From the NCBI RefSeq assembly GCF_041886205.1, contig NZ_CP169029.1: DNA of 64,000 nt. One strand, given 5' to 3'. Origin of the DNA: Escherichia coli (lineage in GTDB: Bacteria; Pseudomonadota; Gammaproteobacteria; Enterobacterales; Enterobacteriaceae). Below are positions 3,284 to 54,100 of this stretch, piece after piece. The notes beneath the pieces are model-generated. The model ran no database searches, had not been told where the DNA came from, and was given only the letters and a program-made list of their open reading frames with translations. Within the stretch, counting starts at the first letter, position 1. Every line of letters begins with the position of its first letter. A program made the position numbers and the translations under genes.

Positions 3284-3359
3284 TGGCTCCTCTGACTGGA
3301 CTCGAACCAGTGACATACGGATTAACAGTCCGCCGTTCTACCGACTGAACTACAGAGGA
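3284..3359 (-). tRNA. asnT: tRNA-Asn
   Basis: Reverse complement reads TCCTCTGTAGTTCAGTCGGTAGAACGGCGGACTGTTAATCCGTATGTCACTGGTTCGAGTCCAGTCAGAGGAGCCA, 76 nt, canonical E. coli tRNA-Asn. Confidence 0.95.
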
Positions 3360-4350: not shown

Positions 4351-4440
4351 GGAGAGATGCCGGAGCGGCTGAACGGACCGGTCTCGAAAACCGGAGTAGG
4401 GGCAACTCTACCGGGGGTTCAAATCCCCCTCTCTCCGCCA
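4351..4440 (+). tRNA. serU: tRNA-Ser
   Basis: GGAGAGATGCCGGAGCGGCTGAACGGACCGGTCTCGAAAACCGGAGTAGGGGCAACTCTACCGGGGGTTCAAATCCCCCTCTCTCCGCCA, long variable arm, 3' CCA. Confidence 0.95.
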
Positions 4441-5883: not shown

Positions 5884-6534
5884 TCAATGAGACATCATTT
5901 CCTCGACCACTTCTTCGCTACTCAACTGATATGGATAAAACGTTGGCCAGTTTTCCATTTCATTTAATAAAGATTGCTGTGAATCATTACCCATAAAAAT
6001 GTGAAAATGAGATGATTTTCGTGGTGCAATTATATGATCGCTAAATTGTATATATTTAGGGGCTTTGCTTTTAGGATCTTTACATTCGAATAAGTAACGA
6101 ACGCCTTTCTTACCTGATTTGTAAGTGAGTATTTTGTATCCATCGTAATCATATTTACAGGATGTTGTTTCATTATTTCTATGGAATTCAACAATGCCGT
6201 CCTCAATGCCAATCATCTCGATATCTGTCGCATAACCTTTGTGATAATAATCTTTAATTTCAGCAAATGTTTTGGTTTTATCTGCATCCGCTTTCTTCTG
6301 AAAGACGGGGCCAAGTTTGCCACTTTGCAGTAAAGGATAAACGGATTGCCAGACTCCATCCCAGTCACTGAGCGTTCGGTTTTGTACATTGGCATCATCA
6401 AAAACACCATTAGCAGCTTTTTGTTCGACCTCTGTTAAGGGTTTGCCGTGTGAGTGATGACCATGCGAAAAGGCAGGAGCGCTAACAATAAAGACACCTA
6501 AAGCAACAGCCAGTTTGTGAAGACGAATCGCCAA
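5884..6534 (-). CDS. zinT: Periplasmic zinc/cadmium-binding protein ZinT (216 aa from probable TTG start)
   Basis: ORF 5884-6555; sequence (L)[29 protein letters not shown]... matches ZinT. GGAGG lies 8 nt upstream of TTG at 6534; the in-frame ATG at 6555 has no Shine-Dalgarno. Confidence 0.88.
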
Positions 6535-6570
6535 AACAGTTTCCTCCAGAGTCATTGTATATGATGTGTA

Positions 6571-6587
6571 ATGTTATATTGTAACAT
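6571..6587. promoter_or_regulatory. Zur-box-like palindrome in zinT promoter
   Basis: ATGTTATATTGTAACAT with perfect ATGTTA/TAACAT arms, just upstream of zinT; zinT is a known Zur-regulon member. Confidence 0.5.
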
Positions 6588-6720
6588 ATGACAAAATGCA
6601 ACAACTCTTAGGAGATGAGAGCATAGTTTTCTCAGGTGTATTTATCTATCTTATTGAAATAAAATGAATTATGTTGATAATTTGAGGTTGATGACAAACG
6701 AAACATAACCTGATGTGATC

Positions 6721-6760
6721 TGCGCAGGCCGGACAGGGCGCTCGCGCCGCATCCGGCAGG
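6721..6760. repeat. REP-like extragenic palindrome
   Basis: GCCGGACAGGGCGCTCGCGCCGCATCCGGCAGG, GC-rich imperfect palindrome typical of REP, between zinT and msrQ. Confidence 0.5.
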
Positions 6761-14192: not shown

Positions 14193-14285
14193 AAAAAAAA
14201 GCCGGCATCATGCCGGCCCAAAAAATATAAACAAGACGATAAAAGGCTAATAACGGAAGCATCATGACACAGAATAATAAAAAGG
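14193..14285 (-). ncRNA. rseX: Candidate small RNA (RseX-like) ending in a Rho-independent terminator
   Basis: Minus strand: 7-bp stem GCCGGCA/TGCCGGC (14201-14217) followed by an 8-nt T-run. Upstream segment CGUUAUUAGCCUU is complementary (with G-U pairs) to the ompC RBS region as recalled. Position between yedR and yedS matches where rseX is reported in K-12. 5' end not determined. Confidence 0.45.
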
Positions 14286-22618: not shown

Positions 22619-22705
22619 AACACATCAGATTTCCTGGTGTAACGAATTTTTTAAGTGCTTCTTGCTTAAGCAAGTTTCATCCCGACCCCCTCAGGGTCGG
22701 GATTT
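22619..22705 (+). ncRNA. dsrA: DsrA small regulatory RNA
   Basis: AACACATCAGATTTCCTGGTGTAACGAATTTTTTAAGTGCTTCTTGCTTAAGCAAGTTTCATCCCGACCCCCTCAGGGTCGGGATTT, matches DsrA including terminator stem-loop and T-run. Confidence 0.93.
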
Positions 22706-53798: not shown

Positions 53799-53874
<76 letters not shown>

Positions 53875-53927
53875 GTTTAAAAGACATCGGCGTAAGCGGA
53901 TGTCTGGCTGAAAGGCCTGAAGAATTT

Positions 53928-54001
53928 GGCGCGTTAACAAAGCGGTTATGTAGCGGATTGCAAATCCGTCTAGTCCGGTTCGACTCCGGAACGCGCCTCC
54001 A
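53928..54001 (+). tRNA. cysT: tRNA-Cys
   Basis: GGCGCGTTAACAAAGCGGTTATGTAGCGGATTGCAAATCCGTCTAGTCCGGTTCGACTCCGGAACGCGCCTCCA. Confidence 0.95.
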
Positions 54002-54013
54002 CTTTCTTCCCGA

Positions 54014-54100
54014 GCCCGGATGGTGGAATCGGTAGACACAAGGGATTTAAAATCCCTCGGCGTTCGCGCTGTGCGGGTTCAAGTCCCGCTCCGGGTACCA
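54014..54100 (+). tRNA. leuZ: tRNA-Leu
   Basis: GCCCGGATGGTGGAATCGGTAGACACAAGGGATTTAAAATCCCTCGGCGTTCGCGCTGTGCGGGTTCAAGTCCCGCTCCGGGTACCA. Confidence 0.95.

Follow-up and report, generated by a model that had tools for sequence, protein, structure and literature searches.

The locus examined here raises the question of where translation of zinT begins. In the stretch of Escherichia coli DNA that we analyzed (64,000 nucleotides of contig NZ_CP169029.1, hereafter the window), the longest open reading frame (ORF) of the gene runs on the minus strand from an ATG at 6555 to 5884 and encodes 223 aa. An earlier note on this DNA, made from the letters alone, proposed that the gene starts not at this ATG but at a TTG codon, at 6534, with a Zur operator immediately upstream. 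Sequence anatomy, annotation, and conservation agree in bearing this out. We hold it to be very probable that the window carries the standard E. coli zinT 5' end: a Zur box lying over the promoter, a GGAGG Shine-Dalgarno, a UUG start at 6534, and a 216-aa precursor. The TTG start belongs to a 5' end that is already known, already annotated, and already studied; nothing about it is anomalous, and no annotation is in need of correction.

The zinT Gene and Its Product

zinT (yodA) occupies positions 5884–6534 of the minus strand, 216 codons plus a stop when counted from TTG. This assignment draws on the ORF list, the 651-nt coding sequence (CDS) that RefSeq places at the corresponding position of six E. 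coli genomes, Pfam, and the Protein Data Bank (PDB), and the sequence details that had first been read on this strand were all found at their positions. The 216-aa product matches the Pfam ZinT family (PF09223) at 281 bits (cutoff 27; E = 4e-84), with residues 37–216 covered, and matches PDB 1S7D (1S7D_A, 216 aa) at E = 5e-147 over residues 1–216, with four substitutions. By these similarities, the predicted protein is a member of the ZinT/YodA family of periplasmic metal-binding lipocalin-like proteins.

The PDB entries also help to place the N-terminus. Numbering in 1S7D is that of the 216-aa protein beginning MAIRL..., and the mature chains 1OEE and 5AQ6 (193 aa) align with residues 24–216, so that residues 1–23 counted from TTG are the cleaved signal peptide. 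Its coding region (6466–6534, minus strand) specifies the initiator (M) and 22 further residues, with cleavage before His24 according to the alignment of the mature chains. The n-region, the hydrophobic core, and the A-F-S cleavage motif can be read directly from the zinT sequence. Counted from TTG, the n-region contains R4 and K7, for a net charge of +2, and residues 24–30 form the His-rich mature N-terminus HGHHSHG.

The neighbors of zinT are msrQ upstream (RefSeq in six genomes; ferric-reductase-like by Pfam) and a cytochrome b561 homologue downstream (Pfam), an arrangement that we take to be the msrQ-zinT-yodB order of K-12. The cytochrome b561 homologue (PF01292; 5010–5570, minus strand) presents the same longest-ORF issue as zinT: its longest ORF begins at a TTG (MTVKITGATKMNRFSK...), but translation may in fact start at an internal ATG (MNRFSK...). 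Between msrQ and zinT, at 6728–6757, is a GC-rich imperfect palindrome (GCCGGACAGGGCGC/GCGCCGCATCCGGC) that, from its sequence, looks like a REP element. Elsewhere in the window, the small RNA genes DsrA (22619–22705, plus strand) and RseX (14194–14283, minus strand) score above the Rfam gathering thresholds. The tRNA genes are tRNA-Asn(GTT) at 3284–3359 (minus), tRNA-Ser(CGA) at 4351–4440 (plus), and a tRNA-Gly/Cys/Leu cluster at 53799–54100 (plus); islands are commonly inserted at tRNA-Asn genes in this part of the chromosome.

The Zur Box and the Promoter

The Zur box, or Zur operator, spans 23 bp (6568–6590). Its core is the palindrome to which attention had first been drawn, ATGTTATATTGTAACAT at 6571–6587, and the outer arms of this palindrome (ATGTTA/TAACAT) are perfect over 6 bp. 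Searching with what we take to be the gamma-proteobacterial Zur-box consensus (AAATGTTATANTATAACATTT; at most three mismatches allowed) returned one match in 64 kb, at 6569–6589 with three mismatches, and none in 100 dinucleotide-preserving shuffles. The box belongs to the promoter of a gene for zinc acquisition and comes to within 37 nt of the zinT start; in an alignment of seven sequences it is identical to that of K-12. Zur is reported to bind the zinT promoter of K-12, with an apparent Kd of 0.053e-18 M^2 on the operator and about 980-fold repression of zinT (wild type versus delta-zur) (Gilston et al. 2014, PMC4219657). Counting from TTG, the RT-PCR primer of that study, 'zinT18_up' (CAAACTGG...), has nucleotide 18 as its first, and its name thus fits a numbering from the annotated TTG start.

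Within the Zur box lies a candidate extended -10 element, TGTTACAAT (TGnTATAAT-like; 6578–6586, minus strand). The left half of the Zur-box consensus (TGTTATAAT) coincides with the extended -10 consensus, and it is present as exactly TGTTATAAT in Yokenella, Silvania, and others. A generic sigma-70 scan placed no -35/-10 pair over the Zur box, and the searchable literature yielded no mapped zinT/yodA transcription start. We infer the -10 element and the transcription start from the letters, while Zur binding and repression are taken from the K-12 literature.

The promoter scan gave three promoter-like sites in all, versus 1.1 expected. A sigma-70-like pair on the zinT strand (TTGTCA-18 nt-CATAAT; 10/12 matches; 6668–6697, minus) is located about 130 nt upstream of TTG, upstream of the Zur box, and its TTGTCA is invariant in an alignment of seven genomes. 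This pair may serve as a second promoter, at which Zur would act as a roadblock, or may have arisen by chance.

The TTG Start Codon

The TTG initiation codon (6532–6534, minus strand) is preceded by the Shine-Dalgarno GGAGG (6543–6547, minus strand) across an 8-nt spacer (6542–6535). Both are invariant among the aligned E. coli sequences, and for the TTG this is seen in the seven-sequence alignment and in the exact-flank allele counts given below. The minus strand across the zinT 5' end reads ...CATATGTTACAATATAACATTACACATCATATACAATGACTCTGGAGGAAACTGTTTTGGCGATT..., and the spacing in GGAGG-N8-TTG is within the functional range of 5–10 nt. The ORF from TTG 6534 encodes 216 aa, so the earlier reading of TTG, its Shine-Dalgarno, and its product holds in each particular. 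Bacteria have three canonical start codons, of which UUG is one, and its use at 6534, 8 nt after a GGAGG, is nothing out of the ordinary. About 3% of E. coli genes begin with UUG, and in reporter assays it initiates at 10–100% of the level of AUG (Hecht et al., bioRxiv 10.1101/063800). The literature that we found on zinT/yodA contains no direct mapping of the initiation codon, whether by initiation-site ribosome profiling or from the uncleaved precursor N-terminus, and nowhere discusses the TTG start. The same mature protein would arise from either start, and published N-termini therefore cannot tell TTG from ATG.

To count start codons across the species, we used the 907-bp zinT region, which found matches in 5417 of 5426 complete E. 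coli genomes. Six genomes spread over the identity range were inspected: Combat13F7 (99.9% identical to the window), K-12 MG1655, O157:H7 F8798, BEN2908, LD91-1, and MRSN346638. In all six, RefSeq annotates zinT as 651 nt from the position aligned to TTG 6534, and the codon is TTG. Allele counts were then based on 33-nt megablast queries centred on the codon, with a 28-nt exact word, so that a match must be exact at the codon. TTG was found in 4039 genomes with the AAAC flank and in 1246 with the AAAT flank, which places TTG with exact flanks in at least 5285 of the 5417 matching genomes (at least 97.6%). The exact-flank queries of complete E. coli genomes with ATG at the start codon (AAAC flank, 0 genomes; AAAT flank, 0 genomes) and with GTG (AAAC flank, 0 genomes) detected neither codon. 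About 130 of the 5417 matching genomes fall outside these exact-flank classes, through partial copies or other flank SNPs, and about 31 of them cover less than 80% of the region. These partial zinT regions include that of NZ_CP063487.1 (18% covered), annotated 'ZinT/AdcA family'. Two of the roughly 5500 zinT places in E. coli genomes are on a plasmid and not on the chromosome.

The earlier note had left two explanations for the TTG, a non-ATG start or an ATG-to-TTG polymorphism relative to other strains. The former stands and the latter does not, as K-12 and all other examined E. coli share the codon. In the K-12 alignment that the note had suggested, the same TTG is present and zinT is annotated from it, which makes it simply the normal start. 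An in-frame codon listing adds an argument by elimination. The zinT frame is bounded on its 5' side by an in-frame TAA stop (6574–6576, minus strand) that falls within the Zur box. Between this TAA and His24, the K-12 and B2 strains inspected have no ATG, GTG, or TTG other than the annotated TTG. K-12 expresses ZinT, a periplasmic protein that is well characterised, and with no other canonical start available, TTG is the start there.

The Upstream In-Frame ATG

The ATG that gives the longest ORF (6553–6555, minus strand) is a lineage-specific polymorphism and not the annotated start. As had been noted from the letters, it has no Shine-Dalgarno: the 20 nt preceding it (ACATTACACATCATATACA) are pyrimidine/A-rich and contain no run of four or more bases matching AGGAGGT. 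Megablast allele queries at this site found the window allele, AATGAC, in 2104 genomes. The K-12 type, ATTAAC, is present in 1375 genomes and the B2 type, also ATTAAC and with a further A-to-G change 6 nt upstream, in 1403. There are thus 2104 genomes with the upstream ATG and 2778 (1375 + 1403) with TTA in its place; the polymorphic feature is the upstream ATG and not the TTG. About 39% of E. coli genomes carry the ATG allele, which differs by two bases from the TTA of K-12; O157:H7 is among the carriers. In the sister species it is missing: the codon is ATA in Escherichia sp. MOD1-EC7003, and E. albertii is likewise without the ATG.

No annotated feature covers the upstream ATG among the matches listed for ATG-allele genomes, and the annotation pipeline thus leaves the CDS unextended. 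A start at the ATG would prepend MTLEETV to the signal peptide, adding two Glu residues; the net charge of the n-region, +2 when counted from TTG, would drop to 0, a value atypical of Sec signal peptides. We regard ATG 6555 as an accident of the two-base difference and not as a functional start, and we infer exclusive use of UUG in the strains that bear the ATG, although a low level of initiation at the ATG may occur in them. The standard annotation (216 aa, TTG start) holds for the window strain, and simply calling the longest ORF, at 223 aa, would give the wrong start in those E. coli genomes that have the upstream ATG, roughly 39% of them all.

Conservation beyond E. coli

A scan of species-representative genomes yielded 80 zinT loci, 76 of them full-length. 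The frame was traced upstream in each, and the start was chosen per locus by a Shine-Dalgarno together with a positive n-region and a hydrophobic core. The 76 full-length loci form two groups. Group 1 (n = 29, the window counted) consists of 29 genomes/species from about 12 named enterobacterial genera, has signal peptides of the type '(M)A..h.GKLAvALG', and starts with TTG in 26 cases, GTG in three, and ATG in none. Its members include Escherichia, Salmonella arizonae, Citrobacter freundii, Atlantibacter, Enterobacter spp., Phytobacter, Superficieibacter, Yokenella, Silvania, Huaxiibacter, Lelliottia, Pseudocitrobacter, and most Serratia. Group 2 (n = 47), with signal peptides of the 'MKK...' type, starts by the same rule with ATG at 44 loci and GTG at three, and includes Buttiauxella, Cedecea, Pantoea, Kosakonia, Franconibacter, Yersinia, Proteus, Providencia, and Morganella. 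A neighbor-joining tree built from the mature parts gathers the TTG group into a coherent cluster, within which a single ATG branch (Pantoea/Erwinia) is nested; pairwise identity of mature proteins within the TTG group goes down to 61%.

Column by column, group 1 conserves GAGG at -12 to -9 (23–28 of 29), ATT at -3 to -1 (22–27 of 29), the start codon itself (T, T, and G in 26, 29, and 29 of 29), and G at +4 (25 of 29). Neighboring spacer and third-codon positions are conserved in only 9–17 of 29. The Zur box ends 28–39 nt upstream of the start in 29 of 29 members. A by-product of the comparison is therefore that a non-ATG start, its Shine-Dalgarno spacing, and its distance from the Zur box are conserved as a unit in many enterobacterial genera. 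Judged from these alignments, the TTG start of zinT is old and stable. In view of the conserved ATT-TTG, the ATT/GTT codon at -3 was considered as the true start and rejected: this codon is GTT, CTT, ACC, ACG, or GTA in several genomes, and TTG/GTG is always there.

The scan also brought up contigs of a 'Bacillota' MAG and of a 'Bacteroides' MAG with zinT fragments 98–99% identical to E. coli, which are most likely binning contamination. Four contigs of one assembly, Serratia sp. DD3, have identical match statistics and identical translated 5' sequence at zinT, which suggests an assembly duplication or a repeated segment.

Expression of zinT and Alternative Readings

The following account would fit these data. 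Zinc-bound Zur on the 23-bp box, which overlaps the likely extended -10 element, would occlude RNA polymerase and block transcription. Zinc starvation would free the promoter, with a predicted transcription start around 6565–6572 and a leader of about 30–40 nt to the TTG. GGAGG (6547–6543) would then position ribosomes for initiation with fMet at UUG 6534, 8 nt downstream. The product is a 216-aa precursor whose 23-residue Sec signal peptide is cut after Ala-Phe-Ser, leaving a periplasmic ZinT that begins HGHHSHG.

Three competing readings were weighed. The palindrome departs from the 21-nt consensus at three positions, as a chance AT-rich inverted repeat with no role as a Zur operator might, but the probability of this is close to nil: it is the sole match in 64 kb, the 100 shuffles gave none, the identical K-12 sequence has published Zur binding and about 980-fold repression (PMC4219657), and an equivalent box lies 28–39 nt from the start in 29 of 29 related genomes. 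Hardly any more credence can be given to the idea that the TTG arose by an ATG-to-TTG mutation peculiar to this strain and leaves zinT less well translated than in other E. coli. All that recommends it is that a gene would, as a rule, be expected to start with ATG. It is refuted by K-12 and at least 97.6% of the complete E. coli genomes, which have TTG, and by the allele queries, which detected neither ATG nor GTG; TTG is kept as well in E. albertii, Salmonella, Citrobacter, Serratia, and others. A better case, though still a very improbable one, can be made for translation in the window lineage mainly from ATG 6555. On this reading the precursor would be 223 aa long, its signal peptide would have 30 residues, and the TTG would be no more than an internal Leu codon. 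ATG is intrinsically the stronger start codon and opens the longest ORF, the allele is common (2104 genomes), and the mature protein would be unchanged, so that there would be no selection against its use. Against this, the ATG lacks an upstream Shine-Dalgarno and is only about 10–17 nt from the likely transcription start; it is missing from K-12-type and B2-type strains, Escherichia sp., and E. albertii, all of which make ZinT without it; it would put Glu-Glu into the n-region and bring the net charge down to 0; no RefSeq CDS covers it among the matches listed; and it is relative to TTG, not to ATG, that the Shine-Dalgarno and its spacing are conserved.

A further proposal accepts the UUG start and asks why it persists. 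A weak UUG start, together with the fixed GAGG-N8 and AUU-UUG-G context, might be held by selection, for instance as a throttle or as a match to starved ribosomes. We think this unlikely. It rests on finding no AUG replacement in 29 genomes/species of about 12 named genera, with mature identity down to 61%. At the first base of the start codon, group 1 has three independent T-to-G changes versus no T-to-A, which is not significant; with only three first-base changes, all to G, there are too few data to show selection against ATG. If the UUG were in fact selected, it could serve to hold back translation from a promoter whose de-repression is about 1000-fold. Alternatively, initiation could be matched to zinc-starved ribosomes, in which L31/L36 are swapped for zinc-free paralogues.

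Comparison with Known Systems

Setting selection aside and returning to the standard 5' end, zinT resembles the other E. coli genes with a conserved UUG (about 3%) in combining a near-cognate start, read by fMet-tRNA, with a strong Shine-Dalgarno at optimal spacing. The AUU start of infC serves autoregulation; the UUG of zinT, unlike it, has no documented regulatory role. The operator is likewise of a familiar kind. The E. coli Zur regulon operators (znuABC, ykgM/L31p, zinT, and pliG) have an AT-rich GAAATGTTATANTATAACATTTC-type palindrome over the promoter, as in the window (Gilston et al. 2014, PMC4219657), and of the four Zur operators measured, that of zinT is one of the two with the tightest binding and the strongest repression (PMC4219657). 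The window operator does not differ from that of K-12, and in both the central CAATA is off perfect dyad symmetry.

The closest counterpart is zinT/yodA of E. coli K-12 itself (b1973; PDB 1S7D, 1OEE, 1TXL, and 5AQ6), which shares with the window the position next to msrQ, the TTG start, the GGAGG at 8 nt, and the Zur-box sequence. The 216-aa products differ at four residues (H6Y, G75D, K155E, and F197Y). At the site 21 nt upstream in frame, K-12 has TTA and the window has ATG, which gives the window a longer, apparently unused ORF.
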